A stretch of DNA of 64,000 nt from Gemmatimonadota bacterium (lineage in GTDB: Bacteria > Gemmatimonadota > Gemmatimonadetes > Palauibacterales > Palauibacteraceae), in contig JAZDDE010000304.1 of assembly GCA_036679495.1 (NCBI GenBank), positions 6,674-70,673 of the forward strand. Reading direction: 5' to 3'. The notes below the pieces were generated by a model. That model searched no databases. It had not been told where the DNA came from and was given only the letters and a program-made list of their open reading frames with translations. Every line of letters begins with the position of its first letter. Position 1 is the stretch's first letter. The position numbers were made by a program, and so were the translations under genes. Shown piece after piece: positions 14,651 through 32,535 of this stretch.

Positions 14651-14680
14651 GAGTGGACTTTCAAGCGGCGCCGTCGAACT

Positions 14681-15538: not shown

Positions 15539-16650
15539 TCGGCGCGCCCAAGCACCTGATTGCACAGAGCTCGCCAGCGCTCGACCCCCTTCGCGAGGGT
15601 CCACTCGCCCACCATCGCGCTCGATTCTCGGCTGAAGCGTTGCCGTAGCTCAGCCGAGGAGATCAGTTGGTCGAGCGCGGTGGCGAGCGCCGCGGCATCA
15701 TCGACTGGCACGACCAGGCCGTTGACGCCCTCACGCACCAAGTCATCGGCGGCGGCAACGCCTTGGGTGGTGACGATCGGTAGACCTGCCGCGAGAGCTT
15801 CATTCATCACCACACCCCAGCCGTCGTGGCGGCTAGGGAGAACGAAGAGGTCCGCAGCGGCAAATATGTCCGGCAAGTCATCCGGTTGGCGAAAACCGAG
15901 GAAGGCAATCCTCTCAGTGAGTTCCCGTGGCACCCCCGCCCGGTAACGCTGTAACTCGGGCCCGGCACCGACCAGGGTTAAGCGTGCCTCGCCACGCCGG
16001 TCGGCGATCTTCGAGAAGGCCTGGAGTAACGTATCGACGCCCTTTCTTTCGATCATTTGACCGCTGTAGAGCACCGTGACTCGAGAGCTGTCGGGCTGGC
16101 GCCCAAGAGCGGCCCGGGCAAAAGGTTCCGTGTCGCAATGGTACGGGATGTTGACTACCGGCACATGGCGGTTCAGATGCCGATAGGCGGGTACGGCGCG
16201 GCTACCAATGGCCGCGATGGCGTCGGCCTGGGCCACCGGGCGCTGAAGCCCCCAGCGCACGGCACGCCCGAGAGGCCCACGATGGCTCATGGCCGGCACC
16301 TCGCCCCAGAACACCCATGGACAGCGAGGCCGAAGCCAGCGCATCACGCGCTGCGCTGTCATGGAGGAGTAATCGCTGACCACAACCAGATCGGGAGCAA
16401 AGGCCTCAAGGTCGCGCACCGCTGTCGGGTTCCAGTGCGCCGACGGTCCAAGCCAATGGAGAGTCCGGCCGGGTAGAATTCGTTCGAACGCGGCGAGCTC
16501 GTTCGGCTGCCAATCGCGGTCGGTGGCGTCGGCGGTGTAGTACAACACCACCAGCTCGAACTCCGGGTCCGCCGCCAACGCCCCAAGGAACTGGCGTTGA
16601 TAGGGCGACGGCATAACCGTCAGAAAAGCGAGCCGGGTCGGTCGGATCAC
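15535..16650 (-). CDS. glycosyltransferase, GT4 family
   Basis: LPSRHDGWGVVMNEALAAGLPIV motif and GT-B architecture. Confidence 0.8.
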   Translation of the reverse strand: MIRPTRLAFLTVMPSPYQRQFLGALAADPEFELVVLYYTADATDRDWQPNELAAFERILPGRTLHWLGPSAHWNPTAVRDLEAFAPDLVVVSDYSSMTAQRVMRWLRPRCPWVFWGEVPAMSHRGPLGRAVRWGLQRPVAQADAIAAIGSRAVPAYRHLNRHVPVVNIPYHCDTEPFARAALGRQPDSSRVTVLYSGQMIERKGVDTLLQAFSKIADRRGEARLTLVGAGPELQRYRAGVPRELTERIAFLGFRQPDDLPDIFAAADLFVLPSRHDGWGVVMNEALAAGLPIVTTQGVAAADDLVREGVNGLVVPVDDAAALATALDQLISSAELRQRFSRESSAMVGEWTLAKGVERWRALCNQVLGRAE

Positions 16651-17996
16651 GAGCGTTGTGGGGTGATCGGGCCGCCGGCGCGCCAGGCAGCCATACGCTG
16701 CGAGTACTCCTTCTGCGTCACCACGATAACGGCAAGGAAGACAAAGATCGCCTGGTAGAAGACGGGAAACGTAAACGAACGGCCGATGACGAAGAAGCCG
16801 GCTAGGCCCATGGCGTAGAACGTCATGACAGTGATGTATTGGAAGGCGACCTCCCCGAGTCGGTCCCAGGTTCGACAGATCCAGCCGCCGACCGCGCTCA
16901 CCAACAGAATCCCGGCGATACCGAAGTTCATGTACATCTCGCCGACGATGCCGTAGGCCGCGGTGTATCCGGTACCCACCGAGCCGGGCGCGACGATGGC
17001 CGCGTAAGTGACCCCGAAGCGCGGCGGCTTGCCCTCCCAGAGGAAGCGCGGGAAGGGATTGACCAGCTCCGCGATGTAGCTCTCGCCCCAGACGAAATCG
17101 TACGTATCAGGGAAGTACTTGGTGATGAAGAGCAACTCCCGAAACATCTCGAAGCCGACATACTGGGTCTCGGCGCCCCAGGCCAGGACTCCTTGCTCTC
17201 GGCCGGCGACGACCGCGACGGAGTACTCGTAGAACACGAAGCCTAGCGGCACCATGAGCAAGATCAGTCGGCGCCGGTAATGGAGCGGGAGTCGCCAGAC
17301 GACGGCCATAGCGATGGGGATCAATGTGATGATCAACGAGGAACGGGTGCCCGAGCCATAGGCGCGGAGCAAGGCGTACGTCACCACCAAAGCCGCGAAA
17401 CAGCGTTTCCAGATCGGTTGATCGCGGCGCAGGGCATAGACCGTAGCGAGGCCGGCAAGGCCGATCAGAAACAGTTCGAGCATAAGCATCGCATCGCGCA
17501 CCTGGCCGAACTGCGCCCGCCCGATGCTGCCGCCCCAGGTCCGGCGCATACCCATGAAGCCACGGACTGTAGAGATGAGGTTGAGTCCGCCGTAGTAAAG
17601 CACCGGTGCTAGTCCGATGAACGCCGCCGACACCGTGACCGCCCACAGGTGACGAGGTTGTTCAAGAAGCGATAGCCGGATCGCCATCGAATCGATGCGG
17701 CGATAGGGAGGTAGCTTGTGATAGCCAAGCAGGAAGCAAGAGATCGAGATGCTTAGGAGAAGGATTCCAAAGTCGTACTCGGCTTGCGTGTAGCCAACGG
17801 TCAAAGCCTCGGGGATCATCAGCGCCTCGAGCAGGTACCAACTCAGGTAGCCACCGAGGACAACGTTGCGCGCTCTCACCAGGCGCAGAAGATCGTGGCG
17901 AAGATCGAGAGCCAAAGCCAAACCAACCGCGACAGCGAGCAGTTGGGCGTAGAAGCCGGAGAGTTCGGAGCCAATCAACGTCAGATCGTCCGGCAC
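16647..17996 (-). CDS. oligosaccharide repeat-unit polymerase (Wzy-like) membrane protein
   Basis: 449 aa, ~11 TM helices with a large loop between late helices. Sits between GT genes in an operon that overlaps at gene boundaries. Confidence 0.5.
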   Translation of the reverse strand: MPDDLTLIGSELSGFYAQLLAVAVGLALALDLRHDLLRLVRARNVVLGGYLSWYLLEALMIPEALTVGYTQAEYDFGILLLSISISCFLLGYHKLPPYRRIDSMAIRLSLLEQPRHLWAVTVSAAFIGLAPVLYYGGLNLISTVRGFMGMRRTWGGSIGRAQFGQVRDAMLMLELFLIGLAGLATVYALRRDQPIWKRCFAALVVTYALLRAYGSGTRSSLIITLIPIAMAVVWRLPLHYRRRLILLMVPLGFVFYEYSVAVVAGREQGVLAWGAETQYVGFEMFRELLFITKYFPDTYDFVWGESYIAELVNPFPRFLWEGKPPRFGVTYAAIVAPGSVGTGYTAAYGIVGEMYMNFGIAGILLVSAVGGWICRTWDRLGEVAFQYITVMTFYAMGLAGFFVIGRSFTFPVFYQAIFVFLAVIVVTQKEYSQRMAAWRAGGPITPQRS

Positions 17997-18967
17997 TCAG
18001 CGAGGAATCGGCGGCGGCGGTAGCTTCGCAGCAGGCGAAGCATCCTGGACTCGAGCCGGCGATGTGGCAGCGCCGAGCCAGGGCTCGGGCGCTCGTGCCG
18101 AAGCCAGTCGTGGACCTCGGGAAACCGATCGCTCAGCCAGGAGAGGAAGGCGGCCTTTGAGTGAGCCTGCATGGAATTATGATAGTGCAGAACGCAGGTA
18201 TCAGTTGGCGCTTCAAGGCTTTCAAACCCTCTTCCCCAAGCCGTCAGGCTGAAGTTGTATCCCGCTGCTAATGGACTCCAGCGCAGACCTCGTTGGGCGA
18301 CGGTGAGCCCCAGAGCAGCCTGTTCGATCCAGTGGATTCCGCTGCGTCGGCACGCTATGCGAGCGTCGAGGAGCTGCACCGCGTTGTCAAAGTAGCTCTC
18401 GGCCAGTCGAGTGTCGCGCCGGTAGGCGAAAACGCCGCTGTTGACGTAGTAGCGAACGATGCGTCGAGTCTCCGGTAGCTCGACCCACGGCAGAATCGAG
18501 AGTTCGACGCCGAGAGCAGCAGCGAACGCTGCCCACAGAGGCTCGTAAGAGTCGCCCTCGCCGGCCGTTTCGATACTTCCCGCCTCCGGTTTGGCGACGA
18601 AATCGACGGCGGGCTCGAGCAGTAACTCTCGCGGTTCGGCGACGACGAGCGCGTCGCTGTCGAGAAAGGCGACGACCTCGGTGGTGACGCGGTCCTCGAC
18701 GGCTCGCAGCGCCCTGGCCTTGTTCAGGAAGTGATACCAGGTGTAAGGGTCTGAGGGAGTCAGGCGAATCACCTCTACGTCCAATGAGGCGAGGCACCTC
18801 AGGGTCTCCTGGCTGAGCCGGGGGCCTGGGCGTGCACAGACCGCGACGACGGGCTGCTGCGCCATGCGTCCGCCGTAACGACGCAGGCTCTCGACGAGTC
18901 GCAGAGTCATGGGTTCGAGCGCCCCCGACTCAATGCAGCAAACGATCGTGCAGTCCGCGGAACTCAT
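17981..18967 (-). CDS. hypothetical nucleotide-diphospho-sugar transferase-like protein (DxD-containing)
   Basis: Soluble protein with FLDSDALVV (DxD) and ATGA coupling to the upstream GT4. No firm family assignment. Confidence 0.35.
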   Translation of the reverse strand: MSSADCTIVCCIESGALEPMTLRLVESLRRYGGRMAQQPVVAVCARPGPRLSQETLRCLASLDVEVIRLTPSDPYTWYHFLNKARALRAVEDRVTTEVVAFLDSDALVVAEPRELLLEPAVDFVAKPEAGSIETAGEGDSYEPLWAAFAAALGVELSILPWVELPETRRIVRYYVNSGVFAYRRDTRLAESYFDNAVQLLDARIACRRSGIHWIEQAALGLTVAQRGLRWSPLAAGYNFSLTAWGRGFESLEAPTDTCVLHYHNSMQAHSKAAFLSWLSDRFPEVHDWLRHERPSPGSALPHRRLESRMLRLLRSYRRRRFLAECRTI

Positions 18968-20226
18968 CGACCGCTCGCCGTCAGTTCCACCAGCTGATCG
19001 ATCACGGACTGCGGGTTGAACCGAGGGTCGGGCGCGGCGGCGGCAGCCGACATTCGAGCCAGCTCCAAGGGGTTCTCCAGACACCAGGTAAGCGCCGCAG
19101 CGATCGCTTCCGCCGACACTTCGGGAAGCACTCTCCCCGTCTCACCCTCGACGACAACCTCACCGCAATGCTTCGACGCAACGATAGGCAGGCCCCAGGC
19201 CTGGGCTTCCAGTTGAGTCAGCCCGAAACCGTCGGAGTGCGTCGGGAAGAGAAACACGTCGGCCGCCTGGTAGTACTCGTCCGTGGCGCTGCGCTGCACA
19301 GGGCCGTGCCAGTGAACTTTCGAGCTTTGCAGTTCCGCGTTACCCACCTCGACCCCTAAGGGCCCGACGAAGTGAAACTCGATCGGGCTGTCGGCCAATA
19401 GACGACTCGCCGCCAGAACCTCGGCGATACCCTTGCGGACAATGGCTGAACCCAAGAAAAGGACCCGCAGAGGCAGCTCGCGGGTAAAGGCCGCTGGGTA
19501 GTGCTTTGGCTTGGACACGAGGGCACGTAGTTCGTGGGCCAAAGGCACAAGGTGGAGCTTGGCCGGGTCGATCCCGGCGCGCTCGAGCGCTTCGAAAGAC
19601 CACTGAGAATTGACCACGATGTAATCGGCCAAGCCGCACTCTTCGCGCCAGCGCTGCCAGTACTCGGTCGGGGCAGGGCGAGAGTATGACTGGAATTCGG
19701 GGACACGGAGCTCGTGAGCGGTAACGATCTCTTCCTCGACAGGTCCGGGGTCGATCTGACCGAGGACCGTGGCCCGGCCCGCCTTCTTGGCGGCCGCGAA
19801 GATGCGTCGAGCCGCATAGCTGTAGGCGAAGACAGTTCCACGGCGAGTCACCGACTCGAAGCCGCCCGATTTGGCGACGCATTTGAGGACTCGGTCTTGA
19901 AACCACTCGTTGCGACGCACGATGGTCGTCCAGTAGTCGCCCCGTTGATGCGCCCGTTGACCCAACTCGAAGGCGAGTAGGGAGCGAGTGAACGCCTCTA
20001 CGCGAGCCCCGTCAAGCTCTGGCCGATAGCGCTCTCGTAGGCGCCGAAAACGAGCTCCCGGTATCAGGAGTGCCGCCGAGCGAGGTGGAACCCAGGCGTC
20101 GGTCATGAGGCCGGCCAGGAGCCCCCGAGCGTGCAGACCGCGCGCCACGGCATAGTGCTCGCGGGCGCCGATCTGACAGCACAGCCAGGGCGCAGGAGGC
20201 GAGGCGGATCTGTCGGAGGACGGCAT
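18964..20226 (-). CDS. glycosyltransferase, GT4 family
   Basis: GT-B fold. C-terminal FLFPTHSDGFGLTQLEAQAWGLPIV motif. Confidence 0.7.
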   Translation of the reverse strand: MPSSDRSASPPAPWLCCQIGAREHYAVARGLHARGLLAGLMTDAWVPPRSAALLIPGARFRRLRERYRPELDGARVEAFTRSLLAFELGQRAHQRGDYWTTIVRRNEWFQDRVLKCVAKSGGFESVTRRGTVFAYSYAARRIFAAAKKAGRATVLGQIDPGPVEEEIVTAHELRVPEFQSYSRPAPTEYWQRWREECGLADYIVVNSQWSFEALERAGIDPAKLHLVPLAHELRALVSKPKHYPAAFTRELPLRVLFLGSAIVRKGIAEVLAASRLLADSPIEFHFVGPLGVEVGNAELQSSKVHWHGPVQRSATDEYYQAADVFLFPTHSDGFGLTQLEAQAWGLPIVASKHCGEVVVEGETGRVLPEVSAEAIAAALTWCLENPLELARMSAAAAAPDPRFNPQSVIDQLVELTASGR

Positions 20227-20250
20227 CGTGATCGGGCGCTGCCTTCCTGG

Positions 20251-21150
20251 CTAGTTGGGCAGACTGAGCCAGTGGCGAAACGTCTTGAACGAGAGCGGAT
20301 CGCGCCTCCTGGCGAGCCGCGGCATCAGGCGCAACCAGTCTCCCACGCCGCGCAGCACGGCGCCGAGAAAACCGCGCCGTTTGTGGAAGAAAGCCAGTTT
20401 GACGATCTTGTTGACGGTCAGCAGGGGCAAGAGGACCAGGGGCGCACGCTCGGTGAGCCACCAGAGTTCGTTGCGGGTTCCGATCCGTACCCGGCGGTCC
20501 TTGGCCAGCTGGCCCTCGAAAGCGCTCTCGTTGCTCTTTGTGATGCCATCGCGCAACTGCCAATCGACGCGATGATGGACGACCAGACCGTGATCGGTGA
20601 CCACTCGCAGCCCGCCCCGCCAGAGCTTGAGACAGAAATCGATCTCCTCGCAGTAGAACTCGAACTCCGTCCTGAGCGGGCCGAAGCGCTCGAAAGCTGA
20701 GCGCCGAATGATGTGGCCGCAACCGGTGAAGGCTCGAACGGGCTCGATACCGCCGCCGACGGGGCCGTCGGGAGGGGTGAGCGACTCGTGGACGTGGAAC
20801 GCGAAGGCTCCGATCTCCGGGTCCGCTTCGAGCAACGCGATTGCGCGCTCCAGAGCGGCCGGGAGAACCCAGTTGGCATCATCGTCCAGGTGGACAAAGT
20901 AGTCGCCGCTCGCCCGGCGCATGAGCTCGTTGCGAGCCTCTATATAACCTCTGGACGCGGGCCAGCAGATGATTTCCACTTTGGGGAACTCACTCGCCAG
21001 CTTCGCGGGATCGTGGGTCGTCGAACCATCGTCGAGGACGAAGATCTCCGGTTCGGGCCAGGTTTGCTGGCCTAGCGAGGCAAGAGTGAGCCGTAGTTCT
21101 CGCGGCCGGTCCTTGGTCGCGATCAGGACTGAGACCCGGGGAGCGCTCAT
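20251..21150 (-). CDS. glycosyltransferase, GT2 family
   Basis: VSVLIATKDRP...DDGSTT...HLDDDANW (DxD) GT-A signature. Confidence 0.8.
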   Translation of the reverse strand: MSAPRVSVLIATKDRPRELRLTLASLGQQTWPEPEIFVLDDGSTTHDPAKLASEFPKVEIICWPASRGYIEARNELMRRASGDYFVHLDDDANWVLPAALERAIALLEADPEIGAFAFHVHESLTPPDGPVGGGIEPVRAFTGCGHIIRRSAFERFGPLRTEFEFYCEEIDFCLKLWRGGLRVVTDHGLVVHHRVDWQLRDGITKSNESAFEGQLAKDRRVRIGTRNELWWLTERAPLVLLPLLTVNKIVKLAFFHKRRGFLGAVLRGVGDWLRLMPRLARRRDPLSFKTFRHWLSLPN

Positions 21151-22124
21151 CGACGGGTCTCACTGTTGCGTGGCCCGAGCGCGCGACCGGTGACGATCCG
21201 CGCGGCGCTGGTAGCAGCGCCCCAGAGCACCGGCGCAGCGACACCAGGCTGGTGGTGAATCTGGCCGGCTACGTCGAAGGCCTGCCAGACCGCGAACCTT
21301 AGATGATCTCCGAGGCCGTGCTTGGCGAGTACCCGCCGCATGATGAAGTACCGGTTGATGATCGTCATGCGCTCGAGAGCCGCACGATCCGCCTTGTGGT
21401 CGCCCGGCTGGCAGTCGTGGAAGATCTTGGCTGAGCGAACGTTGGCGAGGGCCCAGTTGCGGCGCACGGTCAGAGAAAGGGTCAGGTCCTCGCCCAGAGA
21501 GTAGCCGCGGAAGAAGTTGTCAAACGCTGGGTCCGGCAACAACCGCCGCCAGTAGAGCGTGCAGCCGGTGCTGAGCCACTCGACAGGTACCACTTCGGGC
21601 AGGGTCTCGCGGTCGTCCGGGAGCAGGTTGAGACCGGGGCCGAGGCACAGTCCGCCGTAGCTCTCCTCCGAGCGACCGCGGAGGAAACGAAACAGCGACC
21701 GGCTCGCTCGGCCAGGCGGCTGATAGCTCTCATTGGTGATCATCGCGTTGACGCCACCCAGCGCCGGGTCGGCGTTGAGCGCCACCCATAACCGGCTCAC
21801 GCAACCGGGCTCGAAGAGCACATCGTCGTCGTGAAAGAGGATCGCTGGCTGGGTGGCCGCGGCGACACCTTGATTGCGTTGTGGCGCGGCGCCCGTCTTC
21901 TCAGCGCGCAGGTAGTTCAGGCGAGCGCACAGGCCGTCCGGCGGCCGGTCGCAGAGTTCGGCGGTTGCCTGATCGTCCGAGGAATCAATGACGACAACTT
22001 CGGTCGGTTGAGCCTCCAGAGCGGCGAGACTGGTGAGAGTTCGTCCGAAGACGACGGCACGGTTGCGCGTGGGCACCACAGCCGAGATGGGCAGAAGTGT
22101 GCGCATTGCGGTTGGGGATGCCAT
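21147..22124 (-). CDS. glycosyltransferase, GT2 family
   Basis: ISAVVPTRNRA...VIDSSDD...FHDDDVLF. Start set at the ATG that overlaps the upstream stop by 1 nt. Confidence 0.75.
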   Translation of the reverse strand: MASPTAMRTLLPISAVVPTRNRAVVFGRTLTSLAALEAQPTEVVVIDSSDDQATAELCDRPPDGLCARLNYLRAEKTGAAPQRNQGVAAATQPAILFHDDDVLFEPGCVSRLWVALNADPALGGVNAMITNESYQPPGRASRSLFRFLRGRSEESYGGLCLGPGLNLLPDDRETLPEVVPVEWLSTGCTLYWRRLLPDPAFDNFFRGYSLGEDLTLSLTVRRNWALANVRSAKIFHDCQPGDHKADRAALERMTIINRYFIMRRVLAKHGLGDHLRFAVWQAFDVAGQIHHQPGVAAPVLWGAATSAARIVTGRALGPRNSETRR

Positions 22125-23065
22125 CAGGAGCGGCCCGCCGGCCGCAAAGCTCTCCGCCAATCGGCGACAGTCTCGGCAGAGCGAAAGCCGAACAGCCGAT
22201 AGAGCTGGCGGTAGAGCGCGGGAAAAGCGGTTCCGGAGGGAGCGAAACCAGGCGCTTTGGCCTCGATCTCCGCCACCAGAGAGAGAGCTCGCGCCCGATC
22301 ATGGCGCCACTCGATGCGAGCGATCTCGAAGCGCGACTGCTGGACCGCAGCCAGTCGTTCAGGCGTGAGTTGATTGGCGGCGGAGAGGAATCGCTCGAGT
22401 TCAGCGGTGATCGCCAAGCGATGCCGCCGCGTGGTCGCGGGCGCACGCGTCGAAACAGTCGAGTCAGTCGGCTTGCAGTAGACAGCTCCGGCAGCGGCGA
22501 GATACTTGAAGTCCATTCCGGCCTGGAGCAGCCGCAGGTAAAGCTCATGCTCCTGGCAGACCGGCTGGTCTGTCTTCCAGCCCCCAACGCTCTCGAGGGC
22601 TGCTTTGCGCCACAGAGTGGCCCCGGTCTGGGGTAGCCACCAGCGTGCCAGTAGGACCCATGGGTCCCGCGGTTTAGGGATCTCCAGAACTTCGCGTTCG
22701 CCGGCCGTTGTCTCCAGGACGATGGGCCCGTAGAGCACATCGATCGGAGAGTGCCCCTCCAGATCTGCGACCTGAGCAGAGAGCTTGTCCGGTAACAAGT
22801 AGTCATCGCTGTCCAAGTACTGCAGCCATGTCCCGCCGCTGAGCGCGAGCAATCGGTTGCGGGTTGCTCCGCCGCCGGCGTTCTCCTGCCGTTCGAGCCG
22901 AATGCGATCACCGAAGGCGGAAAGGACACGGACGCTGTCATCGGTGGAGCCATCATCCACAACGATGACTTCTTTGTCCGCGTGCGACTGCGCGAGCGCG
23001 CTCTCCACTGCACGCGCCACAGTGCTTTCGGCGTTGTGGCAGGGAATCAGAATGCTGATCCGCAT
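22124..23065 (-). CDS. glycosyltransferase, GT2 family
   Basis: ISILIPCHNAE...VVDDGSTD...YLDSDDY. First gene of the long minus-strand operon. Confidence 0.85.
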   Translation of the reverse strand: MRISILIPCHNAESTVARAVESALAQSHADKEVIVVDDGSTDDSVRVLSAFGDRIRLERQENAGGGATRNRLLALSGGTWLQYLDSDDYLLPDKLSAQVADLEGHSPIDVLYGPIVLETTAGEREVLEIPKPRDPWVLLARWWLPQTGATLWRKAALESVGGWKTDQPVCQEHELYLRLLQAGMDFKYLAAAGAVYCKPTDSTVSTRAPATTRRHRLAITAELERFLSAANQLTPERLAAVQQSRFEIARIEWRHDRARALSLVAEIEAKAPGFAPSGTAFPALYRQLYRLFGFRSAETVADWRRALRPAGRS

Positions 23066-23310
23066 GGGCGAGATCTTACTCGGACCCGTGGTGAAGGGAT
23101 CAAGTCTCGGCTCGGGAGTCGGTGGTGCACGTTGTCAGTTGGGCGAGTTGGCCAACGTTGATCGGTCAGCGATGATGAGTGGATTGAGATCGGAGTGGAG
23201 TTTGAGGAGAAAGCAGCCGTGCAGGGTTCGGCAGTTGACCGCTTTCGGGGCTGATAGGCTGCCTCGCCTGGGAGAAATCGACGCTCAATTACCGCGAAGA
23301 GGAGAAACTG

Positions 23311-24597
23311 ATGTCTCGACTATCGTCCCGGGGCCCGCTGGTGACCACTTTGGTTTGTTTCTTGATGGCTTTACCAGCCTTAGCCGGCAGCGGGGTCGGA
23401 GCGGAGTTCCAGGTCAACACCTTCACTCTAAATTCCCAGCGAGCGTCCTCGGCTGCCGCGGACAACGACGGCAACTTCGTCGTTGTCTGGCAGAGCGGGG
23501 GTCAAGACGGTTCTCTGCTAGGCATATTTGGCCAGCGCTACGAAGCGACCGGCGATCCTGTTGGCAGCGAGTTTCAAATCAACTCGTACACACCGGACCG
23601 TCAGTCCAGCCCCTCGGTCGCCTCAGACGGAGTTGGCAACTTCGTCGTGGTGTGGCAGGACTATTTCTTGGACGGCTCAGAACGAGGGGTGTTCGCTCAG
23701 CGCTACGACGGTGCCGGTAACCCGATTGGCGACGAGTTCCAAGTCAATTCCTATACCTCAGGCATCCAGGACAGTCCGTCGGTTGGCACCGATAGCGTCG
23801 GCAACTTCGTCGTCGTTTGGCGGAGCGATACTCAGGACGGCTCCGGCTTTGGCGTCTTCGGCCAACGCTTCGCGGCCACCGGGGCGCCCCTCGGGGGGGA
23901 GTTTCAGATCAACACCTACACCTCGGGCGGTCAGTTACGCCCCACGGTGGCCTCAGACAGCGCGGGCAACTTCGTGGTCGCCTGGGAGGACGATTCTCAG
24001 GACGGCTCGGGCAGTGGGATATTCGCGCGGCGCTACGACGCCGCAGGCGATCCGCTCGGTCGAGCGTTTCAGGTTAACTCTCACACCACCGGTGCCCAGC
24101 GCGACGTCGATGTCGCATCCACGGCCGCAGGCAGTTTTGTGGTCGTGTGGCGAAGCGATGACCAAGACGGTTCGGGGCGCGGCGTCTTCGGTCAGCGTTA
24201 CGACGCGGCCGGCGATCCTACCGGTGCCGAGTTCCAGGCGAATTCCTACACGATTGGGGAGCAGGATCGTCCTTCCGCAGAGTTCGACGAGGCTGGCAAC
24301 TTCGTGGTTACGTGGACGGGCGACCTGCAAGACGGCTCGGACAACGGTGTCTTCGGCCAGCGCTTCGACGCAGCGGGTAGTCGGACTCTGGACGAGTTCC
24401 AAGTCAACGACTTCACAAACAACAGTCAGTCAGGTTCTTCAGTTCTGGCGAGCCAAGCGGGAAGCTTTGTGGTTACTTGGTCGAGCTATCTTCAGGACGG
24501 CTCGAGCGACGGCGTCTTCGGTCGCGTCCTTGAGACTATCTTTGTCGATGGTTTTGAGTCTGGCGATACTGCAGCTTGGAGCCAAACGGTTCCCTGA
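23311..24597 (+). CDS. secreted protein built from seven ~50-aa tandem repeats (propeller-like) ending in a DGFESGDTAAWS motif
   Basis: Signal peptide, then 7x [EFQVN.YT...Q..PSVA.D..GNFVVVW.S..QDGSG.GVFGQRYDAAG.P.G.]. Strong GAGGAG SD before the ATG. Confidence 0.7.
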   Translation: MSRLSSRGPLVTTLVCFLMALPALAGSGVGAEFQVNTFTLNSQRASSAAADNDGNFVVVWQSGGQDGSLLGIFGQRYEATGDPVGSEFQINSYTPDRQSSPSVASDGVGNFVVVWQDYFLDGSERGVFAQRYDGAGNPIGDEFQVNSYTSGIQDSPSVGTDSVGNFVVVWRSDTQDGSGFGVFGQRFAATGAPLGGEFQINTYTSGGQLRPTVASDSAGNFVVAWEDDSQDGSGSGIFARRYDAAGDPLGRAFQVNSHTTGAQRDVDVASTAAGSFVVVWRSDDQDGSGRGVFGQRYDAAGDPTGAEFQANSYTIGEQDRPSAEFDEAGNFVVTWTGDLQDGSDNGVFGQRFDAAGSRTLDEFQVNDFTNNSQSGSSVLASQAGSFVVTWSSYLQDGSSDGVFGRVLETIFVDGFESGDTAAWSQTVP

Positions 24598-24688: not shown

Positions 24689-24712
24689 AAGACGTCGGGA
24701 GTCGGGCGTCTT
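24689..24712. terminator. candidate hairpin between convergent genes (aagacg-N12-cgtctt), with no U-tract
   Basis: Read directly. 6-bp stem in the 113-nt convergent intergenic region. Confidence 0.2.
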
Positions 24713-25520
24713 ACGGCCAGAGGTGAAGGCCGTGCATAGTGCGCTTTATCAAGCGCTCGAGTAGTCGCCCGCGGTGGTCAGGAAGGAGAGAAGCGTCGAT
24801 GTGGAGAGCGTCGTCTCCAGGATCCAACTGCAAGGTCGCCGACTCGCTGATCTTGCTCTCCCAGCTCTCCTGAATCGCGTGCCCGAAAGTCGTCTCGCCG
24901 GCTAGTGTGGCCTCTCTTCGGGTTTCCAGTCTTTGTGCGATCTGGCCAGGACTGCGATACTTGTAGTGGCGGTAGGGAATCCGATCCGGATGGGCTAGCC
25001 CCATGTGTCGGGGCCAGGCTTGTTCGCCGCGCCAGGTGAGCCCACGCCGATAGCGAAAGAACCGGGGCTCGGAATTGACGGCTTGATAGTGCCTTATGCG
25101 TGGGAGAATCTGCGAGATCGGGGCGGAGAAATCAATCTCCCGAACGTCTGCCCAGGTCAGGAAGTACTCGACGGCGAGCCCCCATAGGACGTGGTAGGGC
25201 GGCTCGACACGTGGGAGCCAAGCGCGGGGGTCGGCGGCGTAGAACTCGTCGGCATCGAGCCTGCACCACCAATCGTCCGCAGAAGACCTGCCCTCGAACT
25301 CGTTGTAGACTCGGTTCCGCAAGTCATTGCTGAACGGTATGTCCTCCTGGCGCCAAGGAACTATCTGGTCGTTAGCTAGGGCGCGCACGATCTCCCAAGT
25401 GCCGTCGGTGCTGCCATTGTCGTAGACGTAGATTTTGTCCGACCAACGACTTGCTTCTTGCAGGCAGTGCGCGACGATGTCGGCTTCATTCTTGACCAGG
25501 CAGATGGAATAGACCTTCAA
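24711..25520 (-). CDS. glycosyltransferase family 2-like (Glyco_tranf_2_4 type)
   Basis: N-terminus MKVYSICLVKNEADIV...YVYDNGSTDGT...RLDADEFY is typical of this GT-A subgroup. Confidence 0.65.
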   Translation of the reverse strand: MKVYSICLVKNEADIVAHCLQEASRWSDKIYVYDNGSTDGTWEIVRALANDQIVPWRQEDIPFSNDLRNRVYNEFEGRSSADDWWCRLDADEFYAADPRAWLPRVEPPYHVLWGLAVEYFLTWADVREIDFSAPISQILPRIRHYQAVNSEPRFFRYRRGLTWRGEQAWPRHMGLAHPDRIPYRHYKYRSPGQIAQRLETRREATLAGETTFGHAIQESWESKISESATLQLDPGDDALHIDASLLPDHRGRLLERLIKRTMHGLHLWP

Positions 25521-26386
25521 GACTCGATACTCCGTGAGCTCACCTTTTCTTGAGACTCTTCGGCCCGCTTCGAGAAGTGGTAGATGATCGTCTTGGCGAA
25601 GGCCTCGCGACGAACTCCAAGAGCCCGCAAAATGGGCCCCAACAAGAAGAAGGCTCGCGACAGCAGAGAGGGCGGGGATGCGACCTGGACGCCCGCAAAG
25701 AACGAGAGCCGAAGTCCTGCCCTTCTAGCCAACTCAAGAAGGACCGCCGGCTCGTACCAGGCGACGTGGTCCGCGCTGTCGACGAAGACGGATCGCCCCA
25801 AGATGTTCTTCAGGATCACGTTGGCGTACCAAGGATTCGGGGTGGTCAGCACCGCTAAGCCGCCTGGATTGAGCATTTCGGCCACGGATTCGAACAGCCG
25901 GAGCGGCGAGCCGAGGTGTTCGATCAGTTCTCCGCAAACCACAAGATCGAACGTCTCCGGAAGCGGCGAAACAAGAAGGTCGTGGCACTGAACCTCGTAT
26001 CCCGCGGCGATAAGCTGTTGGATCTCGTCCTCCAGGATATCGACTCCGACGCAACGATCCGCCGTTCGCGCCAACTGACCATGTAGCCAGTCGGCGCCGG
26101 TTGTAGCCGCCATGCTGTGCTCGACGCACCCGACATCAAGGACTGATTTTCCGCGCGCCAGCGAGCAGACATGGCTAACCCGGTCTCGAATGAGCTCGCC
26201 GCCGCGCGCCTCCTCGAGGATCTGTTGGCGTACCGCTGCCGTTTCGGCGGCGTTCGGATCCAAGGAAAGGCCACGCCAGTCGAGATCGCTGTTGTTGCCT
26301 GCGGATGCCATGAGGGACGGTTGTCGGCCGCAGTCAACCGAGCTCAGTTCGTTGGGGTTCGGCAGACCAGAGCACATGGACCCCAT
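25517..26386 (-). CDS. class I SAM-dependent methyltransferase
   Basis: VLDVGCVEH..(motif I), VGVDI (motif II), FDLVVCGELIEHL and LNPGGLAVLTTPN. Confidence 0.75.
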   Translation of the reverse strand: MGSMCSGLPNPNELSSVDCGRQPSLMASAGNNSDLDWRGLSLDPNAAETAAVRQQILEEARGGELIRDRVSHVCSLARGKSVLDVGCVEHSMAATTGADWLHGQLARTADRCVGVDILEDEIQQLIAAGYEVQCHDLLVSPLPETFDLVVCGELIEHLGSPLRLFESVAEMLNPGGLAVLTTPNPWYANVILKNILGRSVFVDSADHVAWYEPAVLLELARRAGLRLSFFAGVQVASPPSLLSRAFFLLGPILRALGVRREAFAKTIIYHFSKRAEESQEKVSSRSIES

Positions 26387-27248
26387 CGTCGGTGAGGTGC
26401 GTGGGTTCTAGGTCCTGCAGTCGGCTCGGCAGCAGTGGGCCATCCGGCTGAGAGAATCTGGTCGATCTAACGAACTCGTCCCGTACTCGGTAGCCATGGT
26501 ATCCATAGCGCTTCATCGAATCAGTTAGGGCCGCCAGGCGCTGCGATGAGGCGAGCCGCGGGTGGAGTTCGACGATCAAGTTCGCGATACGCCGGTGACG
26601 GAGGAGGTTCGACATCCCGACAAAGGCTTCGACTTCGTGCCCCTCAATGTCCATCTTTAGGAGGTCGATAGAGTCAAGGCCGAGTCTGGCGCACTCGCTA
26701 TCAAGGGTACGCCCGTCGACGACGACGGTACCCGAGGGAGAGATCGTGCCCCATCCTGAGCGCCCTTCGTCGTCCCCACGAGGGTCAAACTCCAACGGTC
26801 CGTTCCGATCGGAGATCGCGATCTGGAGAGGCAGCCAGTTGTCCAAATTCGCGGCCGCTCGTGTTGCCTCGAGAAAGCGAAAGTTCCTCGGCAAGGGCTC
26901 GTATGAGACGACTCGCCCTCGGGTGCGGTGAGCGGCCAGGATCGAGAAATAGCCGCTGTTGGATCCGATGTCCAGAACGCAGCCCGTTGGCTTCAGCAAC
27001 GCGAGGAAGACCTCCGTCACGGCGGCCTCGTGGACCCCCCAAAGGAACAGCTGCATCGAGCTGTGACGGTCCTGCGGATCGACTACGAACGGTGAGCCGT
27101 CGAATTCACCGACGAACTCCTCGGGAGATCCCGCCGCCCGCCACGCAAGCTGAAACGCCCTATGCCTGCCTTTGGGAAGGACCCGGACGAACCGGCCGAA
27201 CCGGCGCAGGAAGCGGGATTGGAATGGTGTGGCCTCGCTGGTCGACAT
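26334..27248 (-). CDS. FkbM-family methyltransferase
   Basis: VLDIGSNSGYFS...IAISDRNG...LKMDIEGHE motifs are characteristic of FkbM. Confidence 0.8.
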   Translation of the reverse strand: MSTSEATPFQSRFLRRFGRFVRVLPKGRHRAFQLAWRAAGSPEEFVGEFDGSPFVVDPQDRHSSMQLFLWGVHEAAVTEVFLALLKPTGCVLDIGSNSGYFSILAAHRTRGRVVSYEPLPRNFRFLEATRAAANLDNWLPLQIAISDRNGPLEFDPRGDDEGRSGWGTISPSGTVVVDGRTLDSECARLGLDSIDLLKMDIEGHEVEAFVGMSNLLRHRRIANLIVELHPRLASSQRLAALTDSMKRYGYHGYRVRDEFVRSTRFSQPDGPLLPSRLQDLEPTHLTDDGVHVLWSAEPQRTELG

Positions 27249-27266
27249 CGGTACCCCAGCGGGAGG

Positions 27267-28163
27267 CTAGCTGTACCAGCCTGACAAGTCACGTTGGACG
27301 AGTGTTTCGAGTCGCTGAATATCGGCTCGGAATCTCTCTCGAAGTGAAGCTCGCAGTTCGAGATCCATCCGCGGTCTTGCCTGCTCTTGGTTGGAGACCC
27401 TCTCCGCCAGATCTCCAGCACGACGCCGCCAGCGCGGAGGAACATGTCGATGCAGGAATCGGCCCAGGGCCGGATTCGAGCGGAGGAACTGACGAGCACC
27501 GACATTGCGGATGCGACGTGCGGCGTTGACCACCTCAAAGTCGGGCTCAAAGTCTGGATTGACCTCGAGGAACTCCAAGACCTGCCGGAAGGCCTCGCGA
27601 GGATTGCGGGCGAGGTCGTCGAAGAGCAGGAAGCAGAGCGCCTCCCTCGGAAAGGTCTGAAGGTAGCGAGCTACCTGTTCAGCGTAGCTGGCGACCCGGG
27701 TGTAGAACACGTTGCAGTCGACCAGGACACGTTGCGGAATATGGCCGCCCGCGAGGCGCTTAGGTTCAGCGGCGAGTGCTTCACTTATGTCGAGTAGATC
27801 TTCCGAACCATTGGCGACGTTCATGTGAAAGAAGGATTGAACGGCGTCGACCGGATTGCGCAGAATACAGAGGATCTTGGCGGTGGGAGAGAAAACTCTG
27901 ATGTTCTCGGCGGCGGTCTGCGAGTAGAGATAAAAGACCGAAGCTTCTCCAACCACGGTTTGATCGCTCGCCGCGCGAAAGATCGCTTGATACTTCTCTA
28001 GGTCCTTGATGCCGCCGAATTCGGGCGCCCACTCGAGGTCGGAAGCGAAGTAGTGCGGCTCTTTGCGCGCCATGAAGATGTCGGGGTGTTGCCCGAGATA
28101 GACGTTCATGGAGGACGTGCCGCACTTCGGCGCACCTACTAGGAAGAAGTTTGGTTGGCGCAT
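27267..28163 (-). CDS. sulfotransferase (Sulfotransfer_1-like)
   Basis: 5'-PSB FFLVGAPKCGTSS and 3'-PB ILRNPVDAVQS. Start at the internal ATG (28163). Confidence 0.8.
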   Translation of the reverse strand: MRQPNFFLVGAPKCGTSSMNVYLGQHPDIFMARKEPHYFASDLEWAPEFGGIKDLEKYQAIFRAASDQTVVGEASVFYLYSQTAAENIRVFSPTAKILCILRNPVDAVQSFFHMNVANGSEDLLDISEALAAEPKRLAGGHIPQRVLVDCNVFYTRVASYAEQVARYLQTFPREALCFLLFDDLARNPREAFRQVLEFLEVNPDFEPDFEVVNAARRIRNVGARQFLRSNPALGRFLHRHVPPRWRRRAGDLAERVSNQEQARPRMDLELRASLRERFRADIQRLETLVQRDLSGWYS

Positions 28164-28396
28164 ACATGAGGGCCCGCAGGTTCGTTTACTGCGACGCTGG
28201 TGGGTGGCCATTATGTCCCGGGCTGGCATGCTCTCGCCGTCTACGTCCGCTTCTAGACTCAAGGTTCCACAGCTGGCGTGGACCGGCGAGTTTCTCCCGC
28301 GATGATTGCAGGGGGGGTGAAGTCTCCGGTTTCTTGTTCTTGCGAGAGTTGTGGTTCCGGGTAAGATGCGAGCACACTTGGCTCAGGAGTGCCCTG

Positions 28397-30109: not shown

Positions 30110-31711
30110 ATGCTTGCTAGTGGCTTTCGTCGGCCGGGTTTACGTTCCTGTTTTCTCTTGATTCCGGCGATCGCCCTAGGCGCGTTCGTCTTCTTGCCGG
30201 GTTCCCTCGAGCGACACTGGTTCAGCGATGACTACGGCCTAGTCTATGGGCTTGAGGGCAGACCGGTGCCGTCGATAAGTGAGGCGCTAAGGCAAGGCGG
30301 CGGTGGGAAGCTCTCGATTCATCGCCTCCTGTGCTATCCCTTCATCGGCTACGTCGGGGGAGCTCTCGGCCCGCATCTGGGCGGTCTACTGCAAGTTGGT
30401 CTTCACTTGTTGGTGGCCTGGCTTCTCGGTCTCTTGTTGTTGAGGCTCGATTGGCCGCCGGCCAGCTCTGCTCTCGCGGTGGCTCTGTTCGCTGTCTCGC
30501 CTTGGAGTACGCAGCCGGTGGTCTGGTGGTCTGCGGTATGCACCGTCGTCTCCACGGTTCTGCTCATGTGCGCCGCTCACGCCTACGTGAGCTGGTCTAT
30601 GAGCGAGCGCAGGAGCTGGTGGTGGCTGGCGAGCGCGCTGCTGTGCATGCAGGTAGCACTGACTTTCTACGAGTTATGGCTAGCCGCCTATCCTCTCTTC
30701 GTGGGCTTGGAACTCTACCGCCGCCGCGGATATCGGGCCGACCAGAAGGCGGCCTGGCGAAATGACACTTGGGCCGCCTTGGCGCACTCCTCCATCATGT
30801 TGATTCCGTCTCTGGTCTACGTGACCTTTTTCGTCCTTGTCGGTCACGGGGCCACCCACAGTCCGAGCTTCAGTCTCTCTCGGGTGCCGGTCGTACTCCT
30901 CTCGATTCATCTGCGCGTCTACCACTGGTTCGCGGACACGCCGTGGGTCCTGGCTCTGGACAAGGGGCTGACGACCCTCAGATCCGGGCCCGGAGCGTCG
31001 GTGCTCCTTGCACTGATCTTGGTCTCTGTGTTGATCTTGCGCCAGAGGCAAAGAGTCAACCGATCATTGGCCTCCGCGAACGCGACGATTCCCGTTGCCG
31101 CGGCGATGCTTCTTTCCTGGGGGTGGTTTCTGGGTTCTCGTCTCGTTTTCCTTGCTCAGGCAGGCGTAGCCACCCATACACGTCACAACTACGGCGCGGC
31201 CATCGCGGCAGCTATCGCGTTTGCCGCGTTGCACAACTACGCGAGCCACTTCGTCCGGAGCGGGCCACTTGGCAGAGGACTGTTGTCTACGAGTTCGATT
31301 TTGGTGCTGGGCGTTCTCTCGCTGACTACAATGGGCATTGCCCAGGAGAGCGAGCGCAACTCCAGGGCCGAGCAGGACACCTTCGAGCAGGTTCTCCCAG
31401 CGGCGTTGTCCGGGGACGTAGGCAGCACCGTCCTTGTTGTTGGGACCCCGAACCCGCGGCGAACCGAGCTGGCCTACTACTCTGAGGAGCAGGGGGTCTG
31501 GCTCAACTACCGTCTCAAGAAGGCGGCGCCGGGTACTAGTGCCTATGTGCTAGACGACGTGACGCGAGATGGAGACCGGTGGGTTTTCACGACAACCAGG
31601 CGTCGTGACAGCAGCGCAGGGCAGAACAGGATACAGCTGCCACTGGAAAAGACCTTGATCTTCCGCTGGGTAGACGGCCGTCTCGAGCGAGACCAATCCA
31701 GCGCCAACTAA
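30110..31711 (+). CDS. polytopic membrane protein with a C-terminal soluble domain (possible GT-C-like glycosyltransferase or polymerase, unassigned)
   Basis: About 11 TM helices and 533 aa. No MOP/Wzx signature. Confidence 0.4.
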   Translation: MLASGFRRPGLRSCFLLIPAIALGAFVFLPGSLERHWFSDDYGLVYGLEGRPVPSISEALRQGGGGKLSIHRLLCYPFIGYVGGALGPHLGGLLQVGLHLLVAWLLGLLLLRLDWPPASSALAVALFAVSPWSTQPVVWWSAVCTVVSTVLLMCAAHAYVSWSMSERRSWWWLASALLCMQVALTFYELWLAAYPLFVGLELYRRRGYRADQKAAWRNDTWAALAHSSIMLIPSLVYVTFFVLVGHGATHSPSFSLSRVPVVLLSIHLRVYHWFADTPWVLALDKGLTTLRSGPGASVLLALILVSVLILRQRQRVNRSLASANATIPVAAAMLLSWGWFLGSRLVFLAQAGVATHTRHNYGAAIAAAIAFAALHNYASHFVRSGPLGRGLLSTSSILVLGVLSLTTMGIAQESERNSRAEQDTFEQVLPAALSGDVGSTVLVVGTPNPRRTELAYYSEEQGVWLNYRLKKAAPGTSAYVLDDVTRDGDRWVFTTTRRRDSSAGQNRIQLPLEKTLIFRWVDGRLERDQSSAN

Positions 31712-31835: not shown

Positions 31836-32351
31836 TCAGCGATAGATGACGCGAACTGTTCGCTCTTTAGCGGTGATCTCTTCCGCCCCGACCGGAGGTA
31901 CGGCCAGCCCCCATTGAATCTCGATCGAATGGGGTCCAGGGTTCACCGGGTGATAGACCCAGGTCATGCAGCGGGTCTGGATGGCGGCCTCCAAGCTCGG
32001 AGATAGCACGACCGAGCCCGGATTGAGGATTACTTCGCCGCCTTGGACGCCCGCGTCAAGCACGGCCTGGACCTTCACACCGGAGAGCGTGGAGCTGCTT
32101 AGCTCGGAGCAGAAAGTGACCTCGACAATGCTCCGCTTAGCCAGACCGAAGCTCACCTTGCTGTTTTCAAGCCTAGTGGGTATGTCCGAGTCGTAGGTGG
32201 TCACTTCGTTCGTAGCCTTGAAACCGATGTGGCCGATCTCCTTGCCGGTGAACGAGATGACCTCGGCGAACGCTATCGAAGGCGCGAGGAGCGCCATTAT
32301 GAGGAACGCAGTGGGAAGGCTGCGGCTACCGATTCGTGCTCTTGTGATCAT
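31836..32351 (-). CDS. small secreted hypothetical protein (171 aa) in a lower-GC islet
   Basis: Start chosen at the ATG preceded by GGAGGAG 6 nt upstream. Signal peptide MITRARIGSRSLPTAFLIMALLAPSIAFA. The local sequence is visibly AT-richer than its surroundings. Confidence 0.5.
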   Translation of the reverse strand: MITRARIGSRSLPTAFLIMALLAPSIAFAEVISFTGKEIGHIGFKATNEVTTYDSDIPTRLENSKVSFGLAKRSIVEVTFCSELSSSTLSGVKVQAVLDAGVQGGEVILNPGSVVLSPSLEAAIQTRCMTWVYHPVNPGPHSIEIQWGLAVPPVGAEEITAKERTVRVIYR

Positions 32352-32517: not shown

Positions 32518-32535
32518 CTGGCTAACAAGGGGTGG

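Follow-up and report, generated by a model that had tools for sequence, protein, structure and literature searches.

The gene and its surroundings

The window, meaning the whole stretch of 64,000 nucleotides that was analysed, carries a polysaccharide locus encoding Wza, Wzc, Wzm/Wzt, a priming transferase, many glycosyltransferases (GTs) and seven sulfotransferases. Several methyltransferases, a Wzt C-terminal domain and a Wzy_C protein are also encoded in the window, and no recognisable glycanase or matrix protein was found in the locus. A complete coding sequence of 428 amino acids (aa) plus a stop codon lies at positions 23311-24597 of the plus strand. An earlier note on this DNA had placed the gene in a glycan locus for a sulfated polymer, in agreement with flanks rich in sulfotransferases. 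Upstream, a divergent GT2 glycosyltransferase gene (22124-23065, minus strand) is the first of a long minus-strand run and has the same position in the orthologous loci L001 and L085; downstream, a GT2-like gene (24711-25520, minus strand) converges on the 3' end, and a neighbour of the same size is present in both of these loci. The intergenic region at 23066-23310, shared with the upstream GT2 operon, contains two islands conserved in three syntenic loci. A scan for promoters and terminators returned nothing, and no sigma-70-like promoter was found in this region. The gene had also been described as the only plus-strand gene between two long minus-strand GT operons, which is correct for its strand and for the run on its left (9860-23065), while the run on its right comprises only four minus-strand genes (24711-28262), with plus-strand genes resuming from 28151.

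The reading frame is a real and intact gene. It starts with ATG, has a dN/dS of 0.20 against the L001 orthologue and stops at the same point as four orthologues, and orthologues of 64-70% identity share its length and its end. A Shine-Dalgarno sequence (AGGAG, 23300-23304, plus strand), read directly from the sequence, lies 6 nt 5' of the ATG and is invariant in the alignment with L001 and L085, bearing out the strong ribosome-binding site proposed earlier. The concern that the gene might be a frameshifted fragment of a larger repeat protein was unfounded, as a single open reading frame (ORF) with seven units is present, nothing adjacent resembles it, and the orthologues end identically; a profile hidden Markov model (HMM) of the repeat found no further units elsewhere in the window.

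The protein appears to be exported. Residues 1-25 (23311-23385, plus strand), MSRLSSRGPLVTTLVCFLMALPALA with GSG following, have the basic start, hydrophobic core and A-x-A site of a Sec-type signal peptide, as had been claimed; these features were judged by eye and agree with equivalent N-termini in the orthologues P0015, P0016 and P0049 and with low AlphaFold2 (AF2) confidence (pLDDT) over residues 1-29. A lipoprotein was ruled out, since no lipobox precedes Cys16 and the orthologues lack this residue. The NCBI product P0001 begins at M19, so that the signal peptide would be missing from it, and an exact look-up of this product returned no record. A Sec signal is the sole evident localisation feature, compatible with a final place in the periplasm or outside the cell, and was counted against the explanation preferred below.

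Seven repeats predicted to form a closed propeller

The mature protein is built from consecutive repeats starting at aa 32, 87, 142, 197, 252, 307 and 362, all on the plus strand and delimited by the repeat period, the AF2 model and the repeat HMM. These are repeat 1 (aa 32-86, 23404-23568), repeat 2 (aa 87-141, 23569-23733), repeat 3 (aa 142-196, 23734-23898), repeat 4 (aa 197-251, 23899-24063), repeat 5 (aa 252-306, 24064-24228), repeat 6 (aa 307-361, 24229-24393) and a shortened repeat 7 (aa 362-407, 24394-24531) that stops after the GVFGR strand. The number of seven had been recognised earlier, with a length of about 50 aa; the period is exactly 55 aa. Mean pairwise identity between repeats at lag 55 is 55% (range 43-67%), against a background of 6-9% for the other lags tried between 50 and 60, none a multiple of the period, and of 8.0 +/- 0.9% in 1000 shuffles, and the seven units match the repeat HMM with E-values of 1e-23 to 1e-30. 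The consensus previously read from the protein matches that of its family, EFQVNTYTTg.Q..PsVA.Da.GNFVVVW.S.gQDGSg.GVFGQRYdssGaPlG. In nucleotide sequence, the units share 61% identity (47% at third codon positions), and Tandem Repeats Finder reported no tandem repeat in the DNA. The repeat is therefore old and confined to the protein level, rather than a DNA-level tandem repeat or an assembly artefact.

The AF2 model (pLDDT 80.6, pTM 0.83) has 28 strands, four per repeat, and predicts that the protein is a closed, stand-alone, seven-bladed β-propeller. Within each 55-aa unit the strands follow the order EFQVN, PSVA.D, GNFVVVW and GVFGQRY, and a blade runs from PSVA.D as the inner strand through GNFVVVW and GVFGQRY to the P.G.EFQ of the next unit as the outer strand. 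The first strand of repeat 1 (EFQ) probably completes blade 7, giving a Velcro closure. Foldseek matched β-propellers only; the best TM scores (given as 0.55-0.57 and as 0.55-0.61) were to the seven-bladed GH145/PL42 enzymes 5mum, 5mul, 7esn and 4irt, and the lowest E-values (2e-9 to 1e-8) were to sialidase/BNR (Asp-box) propellers. Of the two folds suggested before, a seven-bladed propeller or a β-solenoid, the former is supported by the model, the fold matches and the repeat counts of relatives, and the latter, a stack of short-period coils, was discarded on the model and on all fold matches.

By sequence, the protein matches no curated family and no solved structure. Searches of the PDB with the single protein (phmmer) and with a 25-sequence profile (hmmsearch) gave nothing significant at E <= 10, and neither Pfam nor NCBIfam yielded a hit above cut-off. 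Pfam at E <= 10 returned sub-threshold CopC and DUF3459 hits only, and the sub-threshold CopC, GH43 and GH43-related matches in relatives were treated as noise from β-rich repeats.

A large family of probably extracellular propellers

Judged from its repeat, the protein belongs to a very large family for which there is no curated model. Tandem 55-aa units of the form EFxVNTYTT..Q..P.VA.D..GNFVVVW.S..QDGS..GVFGQRY...G.P.G are present in at least 7853 homologues and in 39,405 representative clusters at 50% identity, distributed over Acidobacteriota, Planctomycetota, Myxococcota, Bacteroidota, Proteobacteria, Cyanobacteria and others. As a rule, the units are grouped by sevens, each group making up one closed propeller: exactly seven were counted in 77 of 119 repeat-bearing ORFs, 14 in four and 21 in three. 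Modules are used 7 to 53 times in giant adhesin-like proteins and in many members adjoin SLH, dockerin, RTX, Ig-like (Big) or PEP-CTERM-like parts in the same protein, which suggests that the propeller is an extracellular module. In Pantoea, for example, the repeats lie inside a giant Ig-like protein whose gene is followed by those for TolC, a type I secretion (T1SS) ATPase and HlyD. Paralogues are numerous and often form tandem arrays (L005, L017, L023, L058). None of the cluster names was informative; annotators name members after whichever other domain they carry. A literature search with the repeat and tail strings returned nothing relevant, and one paper pairing "RTX adhesin" with "propeller" concerned an unrelated five-bladed domain. 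The fold is ordinary, and the sequence family is very large and has no curated profile, solved structure or assigned function. As a free-standing protein of 43 kDa whose genetic context is defined, the window member offers a convenient route to that function.

A C-terminal tail shared with short homologues

The protein ends in a 21-aa tail, VLETIFVDGFESGDTAAWSQTVP-COOH (aa 408-428, 24532-24594, plus strand; the leading V overlaps repeat 7), delimited by AF2 confidence and by the shared endings of short homologues. It is disordered in the AF2 model, with pLDDT < 50 over residues 410-428. The reading frame closes as ...FVDGFESGDTAAWSQTVP*, consistent with the earlier observation that it stops directly after the tail motif. 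A clade of short homologues keeps the tail as a terminal peptide, and the same ending is found in P0015, P0016, P0049, P0069, L029, L032, L041 and L076.

The earlier note had taken DGFESGDTAAWS for a motif that precedes sorting or anchoring domains. Yet the relatives that continue past "DGFESGD..WS" have a ConA-like jelly-roll of about 200 aa there instead, which rules out the tail as a sorting signal. This domain (~195 aa) follows L-I-F-x-D-G-F-E-S-G..W-S in L005, in five copies, and in P0125-P0244, and alginate and ulvan lyases are among the folds nearest to it. The window protein lacks the jelly-roll and retains the junction peptide alone, with the ORF stopping 5 aa after WS. The check proposed for a sorting signal after the motif in homologues was run, and the PEP-CTERM-like, SLH, dockerin and RTX ends that do occur are found in proteins without the motif; L006, L064 and L071 have PEP-CTERM-like ends. 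A PEP-CTERM or other C-terminal sorting signal was not found in the window protein, whose tail (...AAWSQTVP) has no hydrophobic helix, and no exosortase was found in the window. The tail was also considered as the degenerate start of an eighth repeat, supplying the last strand of blade 7, and this was rejected, as hhalign supports a shared GVFGQRF strand only and gives no confident alignment of the motif.

Conservation, charge and the case for an enzyme

The repeat frame contains invariant polar residues (N5, T8, Q12, W29, Q34-D35-G36 and R45), and positions 11, 13, 14, 30, 32 and 39 are the most variable. From the usual propeller topology and DSSP, the variable positions are predicted to lie in two loops forming the top face. 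Across 157 unique seven-repeat modules, no residue was conserved in one blade only, which argues against a single active site. The mature protein has a net charge of about -34, a pI of about 4.05, no Lys and one His, located in blade 5, which is replaced by Tyr in the 69% identical orthologue P0015. The lyase role proposed earlier is disfavoured by the absence of blade-specific conserved residues and by this His that the orthologue does not keep, and the lectin or scaffold role proposed along with it is a plausible candidate.

Nevertheless, a lyase or hydrolase with a propeller fold, acting to trim or release the polymer of the locus, would have precedents. AlgL, PslG and PelA are encoded in other exopolysaccharide loci, which often include such an enzyme, and PL24/PL25, PL42/GH145 and PL22 are propeller-fold enzymes. 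No glycanase is otherwise recognisable in this locus, and the best TM scores to GH145/PL42, the sub-threshold GH43-type hints in relatives and the lyase-like folds closest to the jelly-roll behind their propellers can all be read in its favour. However, a TM score of about 0.56 at ~12% identity is the value for any two seven-bladed propellers, and no PDB chain or CAZy-type Pfam family matched the sequence significantly. While GH145/PL42 enzymes (BT3686, BACINT_00347, FoRham1) also have seven blades, give the best superposition and act on acidic glycans, their blades are divergent, whereas those of the window protein share one consensus. Catalysis by PL42 and GH145 depends on a His (the 7esn structure is of an H105F mutant), and no such His is conserved here. 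The multiplication of the module in giant adhesin-like proteins likewise speaks against catalysis, and an enzymatic role is considered highly unlikely.

Other propellers offer partial parallels. Sialidase/BNR propellers have hairpin loops with S/D/G-rich motifs, as does the window protein, but they have six blades and the Asp-box S-x-D-x-G-x-T-W in place of its S..QDGS and D..GNFVVVW motifs; no BNR Pfam match was obtained at E <= 10, and neither the arginine triad of GH33 nor any asymmetric conserved residue was found. Propeller lectins (Photorhabdus PLL/PHL, Psathyrella PVL/FG-GAP, AAL/RSL, tachylectin-2 and tectonins) are small, secreted and very regular, with equivalent aromatic/polar sites in their blades, and the invariant N, T, Q, W and QDG of every blade could be read as lectin-like equivalent sites. 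These lectins gave no Pfam or PDB sequence match and were absent from the 50 best fold matches. Giant RTX/Bap-type adhesins secreted by type I systems contain homologous propellers within Ig-like or RTX proteins, whereas the window protein is stand-alone, has a Sec signal and lacks GGxGxD-type RTX repeats and extender domains; it has no PF00353 match, and no T1SS genes were found in the window. Some homologues do have these RTX and T1SS features.

A possible partner of the locus polymer

Two orthologues (64-70% identity) have their flanks visible on their contigs, and both share the position in a glycan locus. In both L001 (69% identity) and L085 (64%), the order of a minus-strand GT2 gene, the plus-strand propeller gene and a minus-strand 268-aa gene is kept, and the gene content of the right flank differs among the syntenic loci. 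Elsewhere, tblastn found no glycan genes in 78 of 80 loci outside the syntenic contig, and HMMs built from the GT2, GT4, sulfotransferase and methyltransferase paralogues of the window found none in 76 of 83 sources and a single match in four; P0069 and P0021, for instance, sit among unrelated genes. A family-wide association with glycan genes was therefore rejected, and the link to a glycan locus holds for a narrow clade only.

The explanation we tentatively prefer, at somewhat less than even confidence, is that a non-catalytic binding or scaffold propeller was recruited to the sulfated-glycan locus, with a role like that of Bap1. The constant frame and variable top-face loops would suit such a module, which elsewhere may be cargo of surface-display systems. 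In the source lineage, a free copy would have been inserted between the glycosyltransferase operons of a locus for a sulfated, methylated polysaccharide, and on this explanation the propeller would most probably bind, cross-link or organise this polymer outside the cell, as Bap1/RbmC do with Vibrio polysaccharide. The net charge of -34 and the presumably polyanionic polymer argue against simple electrostatic binding; since both partners would be anionic, binding would have to go through Ca2+ or Mg2+ bridges or through uncharged parts of the glycan. The conserved gene order in L001 and L085 and the conserved upstream region were counted for this explanation, and the confinement of the glycan context to a narrow clade against it.

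In Vibrio cholerae, the gene for RbmC lies between the vps polysaccharide clusters. Like the window protein, for which the closure is predicted, Bap1 and RbmC are secreted β-propellers with a Velcro closure. They differ from it in having eight blades, a β-prism insertion and a single asymmetric site, as opposed to seven blades and no insertion, and neither the PDB sequence searches nor the top 50 fold matches showed any similarity to them. As Bap1 uses one asymmetric site, the lack of blade-specific conservation is not itself a sign of a Bap1-like mode. The Bap1/RbmC propeller binds VPS directly (PMC10102183), at a site with an induced Mg2+ (bioRxiv 10.64898/2026.08.03.742583). Bap1 and RbmC bind and organise their cognate exopolysaccharide, whereas gene position alone links the window protein to its polymer. 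If polymer binding is true, the protein would give a handle on matrix assembly and extend the Bap1/VPS type of protein-exopolysaccharide pairing beyond Vibrio; if not, it is one more surface repeat protein. A bolder version, which seems unlikely, would make the 55-aa-blade propeller a widespread and unrecognised glycan-binding class, the acidic free copy a metal-dependent organiser of sulfated exopolysaccharide and thus a second, independently evolved Bap1-type pair, and the tail ...DGFESGDTSAWSxxVP a docking or export tag.

Alternatively, the propeller may be the acceptor that the locus decorates, as an S-layer-like glycoprotein whose glycan would travel by the ABC-transporter pathway and be attached by an O-antigen-ligase-like enzyme. 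The arrangement would mirror S-layer glycosylation clusters that adjoin their target gene. In favour of it are the Wzm/Wzt pair with its Wzt C-terminal domain, the methyltransferases and the Wzy_C protein (O-antigen ligase/O-oligosaccharyltransferase-type) encoded in the window, and the SLH domains of many family members. The protein also has many exposed Ser and Thr residues and shares the acidity of many S-layer proteins. However, the locus also encodes Wza and Wzc, which are hallmarks of free capsules or exopolysaccharides, an SLH domain or other anchor is missing from the window protein, the Wzy_C gene is 34 kb away, and no glycosylation sequon is known for the phylum. An acceptor role is considered even a little less probable than an enzymatic one.

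A passenger gene is a more serious competitor of the polymer-binding explanation, although we consider it rather unlikely. Here, an ordinary surface or adhesin propeller, directed at an environmental ligand or forming a surface coat, would have arrived between two glycosyltransferase operons in one lineage, been kept in place by inheritance and have no functional tie to the polymer. Such a gene would fit the missing general association with glycan genes, the synteny among close relatives only, the opposite strand with its own Shine-Dalgarno sequence and upstream region, and the many paralogues, often in tandem arrays elsewhere, expected of a diversifying surface family. Yet polysaccharide loci rarely retain unrelated genes in their interior, and the position has been kept at a dS of about 1 while the gene content of the right flank changed. 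With net charges of -27 to -35, the glycan-locus clade is also distinctly more acidic than most of the other members, whose charges range from -11 to -20. This suggests some specialisation, although P0069, which lies outside such a locus, is also at -35.

The gene and its seven-bladed product

The gene at 23311-24597 (+), referred to here as the propeller gene, is intact and under selection, and its product is an exported seven-bladed propeller of a family of extracellular modules. As the earlier note had read it, the ORF encodes 428 aa and begins with ATG; AGGAG is located 6 nt upstream. The N-terminus, MSRLSSRGPLVTTLVCFLMALPALA/GSG, resembles a Sec signal peptide when judged by eye, in agreement with the signal peptide claimed for it, and orthologues have equivalent N-termini. 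The NCBI product (P0001) is 410 aa long and starts at Met19, omitting window positions 23311-23364 and thus the signal peptide. Since the AGGAG before the ATG at 23311 is conserved and orthologues align across the full N-terminus, this database start is probably mis-called. The GC content of the gene (61.1%) is close to that of the window (63.3%).

The seven consecutive repeats proposed earlier start at residues 32, 87, 142, 197, 252, 307, and 362, with a period of exactly 55 aa. At lag 55 the repeats share a mean pairwise identity of 55%, compared with 6-9% for nearby lags; 1000 shuffles of the protein gave 8.0 ± 0.9%. At the DNA level, the units are just 61% identical overall and 47% at third codon positions, and Tandem Repeats Finder reported no tandem repeat in the DNA, so the repeat is old and has been preserved as a feature of the protein. 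The alternative raised in the earlier note, that the gene is a piece of some larger repeat protein, was rejected, as a repeat HMM run across the window found a single ORF with seven units and no adjoining ones, and orthologues share its length and end. Three of these, P0015, P0016, and P0049, share 64-70% identity with the window protein, have 428-429 aa, and end in ...IFADGFESGDTAAW(S/D/G)xxVP, and comparison with the P0015 gene gave a dN/dS of 0.20 at a dS of ~1.0.

The AlphaFold2 model, based on a 25-sequence alignment (mean pLDDT 80.6, pTM 0.83), is all-beta with 28 strands, four per repeat, and disorder is limited to the signal peptide and residues 410-428. Foldseek searches against the PDB returned beta-propellers exclusively, so that, of the folds initially considered, the seven-bladed propeller was the right one. 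Repeat counts across 82 loci independently point to seven as the structural unit, with exactly seven in 77 of 119 repeat-bearing ORFs (14 in four ORFs, 21 in three). The lengths of the loops in the DSSP assignment suggest that each blade runs from PSVA.D (inner) through GNFVVVW and GVFGQRY to P.G.EFQ of the next unit (outer), an order in which blade 7 would be closed, Velcro-fashion, by the N-terminal EFQ strand.

Family size, spread, and partner domains

No Pfam-A or NCBIfam model matches the protein, and no PDB chain was matched by sequence, using either the single protein or a profile. A word-indexed search gave at least 7853 homologues, and an exhaustive search gave 39,405 clusters (50% identity) at E <= 1e-3 and 13,345 at E <= 1e-30, among which giant proteins of up to ~7,900 aa are common. 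The sequence family is new and uncurated; the kind of protein is familiar. Genome matches were found in Acidobacteriota, Binatia, Myxococcota, Planctomycetota, Bacteroidota, Alpha- and Gammaproteobacteria, Cyanobacteria, and Chlamydiales, the closest (69%) being a Thermoanaerobaculia MAG (Acidobacteriota).

Fusion partners of the module include SLH domains, dockerin-like segments, RTX repeats with Big domains, PT-rich linkers, and PEP-CTERM-like ends, and on plasmids of Pantoea agglomerans the repeats form part of a giant "Ig-like domain-containing protein", with genes for TolC, a T1SS permease/ATPase, and HlyD immediately after it. The annotation names of these proteins come from their other domains, and none names the propeller. 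The module is thus a piece of extracellular cargo that a wide range of systems display.

One P. agglomerans plasmid (NZ_CP134731.1, locus L083, 5749-23149) carries ~15 repeats spread over two giant "Ig-like domain-containing" genes that lie side by side, and the same arrangement, with TolC/T1SS ATPase/HlyD behind the giant genes, occurs on plasmids of 19 Pantoea strains; Pantoea is a cultured, tractable host in which to study the module. Single MAGs of Vicinamibacteria, Acidobacteriota, and Thermoanaerobaculia (loci L005, L017, L023, and L058) contain head-to-tail arrays of four or five seven-repeat paralogues, many with a C-terminal extension of ~300 aa in which relatives, P0006 among them, carry SLH domains.

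Enzyme or binder

A glycanase is a disfavoured rival reading of the protein, and enzymes are among its structural neighbours: sialidases gave the lowest Foldseek E-values, and the best TM scores (0.55-0.61) belong to seven-bladed GH145/PL42 enzymes (5mum, 5mul, 7esn, and 4irt), which at ~12% identity resemble it in fold alone. A single catalytic centre throughout the family would call for asymmetric conservation and is argued against by the blade comparison, in which 1099 repeats from 157 unique seven-repeat modules were aligned to the repeat HMM. The consensus was identical for all blades, and among these modules no residue was conserved in a single blade only; the sole signal, at position 55 of the 55-aa unit, was dismissed as an alignment-edge artefact. 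The only His of the window protein is Tyr in the 69% orthologue.

Variability is highest (entropy >= 3.5 bits) at repeat positions 11, 13, 14, 30, 32, and 39, and variable positions flank the invariant N5, T8, Q12, W29, S31, Q34-D35-G36, and R45. The D-to-A and B-to-C loops make up the top face of propellers, and by this standard rule the variable positions would belong to these loops. The pattern fits what may be a constant scaffold with a variable recognition surface, as do the tandem paralogue arrays.

The C-terminal tail

The tail motif had been taken to precede a sorting or anchoring domain, which is wrong in detail, as relatives continue into a ConA-like domain. The sequence ...(I/L)F.DGFESGDT(A/S)AWSxxVP is the true C-terminus in homologues at 41-52% identity (L002/P0069, L029, L032, L041, and L076), with variants at L054, L070, and L073. 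In the five tandem Vicinamibacteria paralogues of L005 and in many fragments, the junction GVFGQRF-xPD-LIFxDGFESGxLxAWS opens a ~195-aa domain (L005 222-9677; P0125-P0244), for which 219 homologues were detected and Pfam offers no model. This domain also stands after ELWxxDGT repeat proteins and DUF5122 propellers. Its model is a ConA-like beta-jelly-roll (pTM 0.84), closest to TtX122, PL7/PL36 alginate lyases, PL28 ulvan lyase, the BoNT Hc lectin-like domain, and calreticulin. As the same junction leads into the jelly-roll in relatives, the motif is a junction to this domain rather than the lead-in to a sorting signal, and the window protein retains the junction peptide only. Reading the tail as a degenerate eighth repeat start found no support from hhalign.

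Stand-alone seven-repeat proteins of another large clade (P0008, P0009, P0010, P0014, P0021, and others) end in ...IVPVELMxFxVE, and in a Saprospiraceae locus (L018, 707-2632) the similar string PVELLSFKG is followed by another domain. Short conserved C-terminal peptides that begin a downstream domain in other proteins may therefore recur across the family.

The glycan locus and a possible role

Window positions ~9860-60054 form one large glycan locus of ~50 kb. It encodes an epimerase, nine GT4-type and six GT2-type transferases, a Wzy-like protein (16647-17996), four methyltransferases, seven sulfotransferases (starts 14681, 27267, 32675, 35854, 40540, 41506, and 42621), a DegT aminotransferase, an oxidoreductase, a GNAT acetyltransferase, an ABC-transporter set of Wzt (44725-46029) and Wzm (46033-47130), Wza (49171-50475), Wzc (52726-55116), a priming transferase (55316-56467), an FGE-sulfatase-like protein (56508-57494), and a ligase-like Wzy_C protein (58759-60054). 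Two export routes in one locus, Wzm/Wzt and Wza/Wzc, are unusual. No glycanase or exosortase was recognisable in the locus, and Pfam and NCBIfam gave nothing for the genes at 17981-19084, 30110-31711, 31836-32606, 34934-35857, 46971-47939, and 50509-51915, the first two of which are kept in the syntenic locus L001 at 72-73% identity.

On a rival reading, the propeller could be a passenger surface protein at this site. The gene order GT2(-), propeller(+), 268/269-aa gene(-) is kept in the syntenic loci L001 and L085, carrying P0015 and P0049, despite a right flank of different gene content whose genes are just 55-56% identical, and ~65 nt upstream of the propeller start codon are conserved. The association is clade-specific: tblastn with 19 window glycan genes found no match in 78 of 80 loci outside the syntenic contig, an HMM search left 76 of 83 sources without a match and four others with a single one, and the genes surrounding the homologues P0069 and P0021 are unrelated. 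Within the divergent intergenic region 23066-23310, two islands are conserved across the three syntenic loci, CGAGATCTTACTCGG abutting the GT2 start and GGCTGATAGGCT...CTGGGAGAA...GACGC...CGCG..AGGAGAA..TGATG ahead of the propeller gene; a scan of this region for sigma-70-like promoters found none.

The mature protein has a net charge of -34, a pI of ~4.05, and no Lys, making direct electrostatic binding of a polyanionic polymer unlikely. Charges in the glycan-locus clade range from -27 to -35 versus -11 to -20 in most other members; P0069, outside a glycan locus, also reaches -35. The propeller is, tentatively, best read as a non-catalytic binder or scaffold recruited by this lineage to a sulfated-polysaccharide locus, where polymer contact would be cation-bridged or directed at neutral or methylated glycan parts. 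A propeller from Vibrio cholerae, that of Bap1/RbmC, offers the best precedent: it directly binds and organises Vibrio polysaccharide (PMC10102183) and has an induced Mg2+ in its binding site (bioRxiv 10.64898/2026.08.03.742583). A glycosylated S-layer-like substrate of the glycan locus is a further rival to such a binder. Overall, the observation and fold of the earlier note stand, its reading of the tail errs in detail, and a functional tie to the polymer is plausible on the basis of clade-limited synteny.

Among the homologues on plasmids, the best (49% identity) is a "hypothetical protein" of 1228 aa from Salipiger sp. CCB-MM3 (NZ_CP014601.1, locus L084, 7965-11651). Its gene adjoins glf, a sulfotransferase gene, and cysD, a second, independent case near sulfation/glycan genes that may be coincidental.
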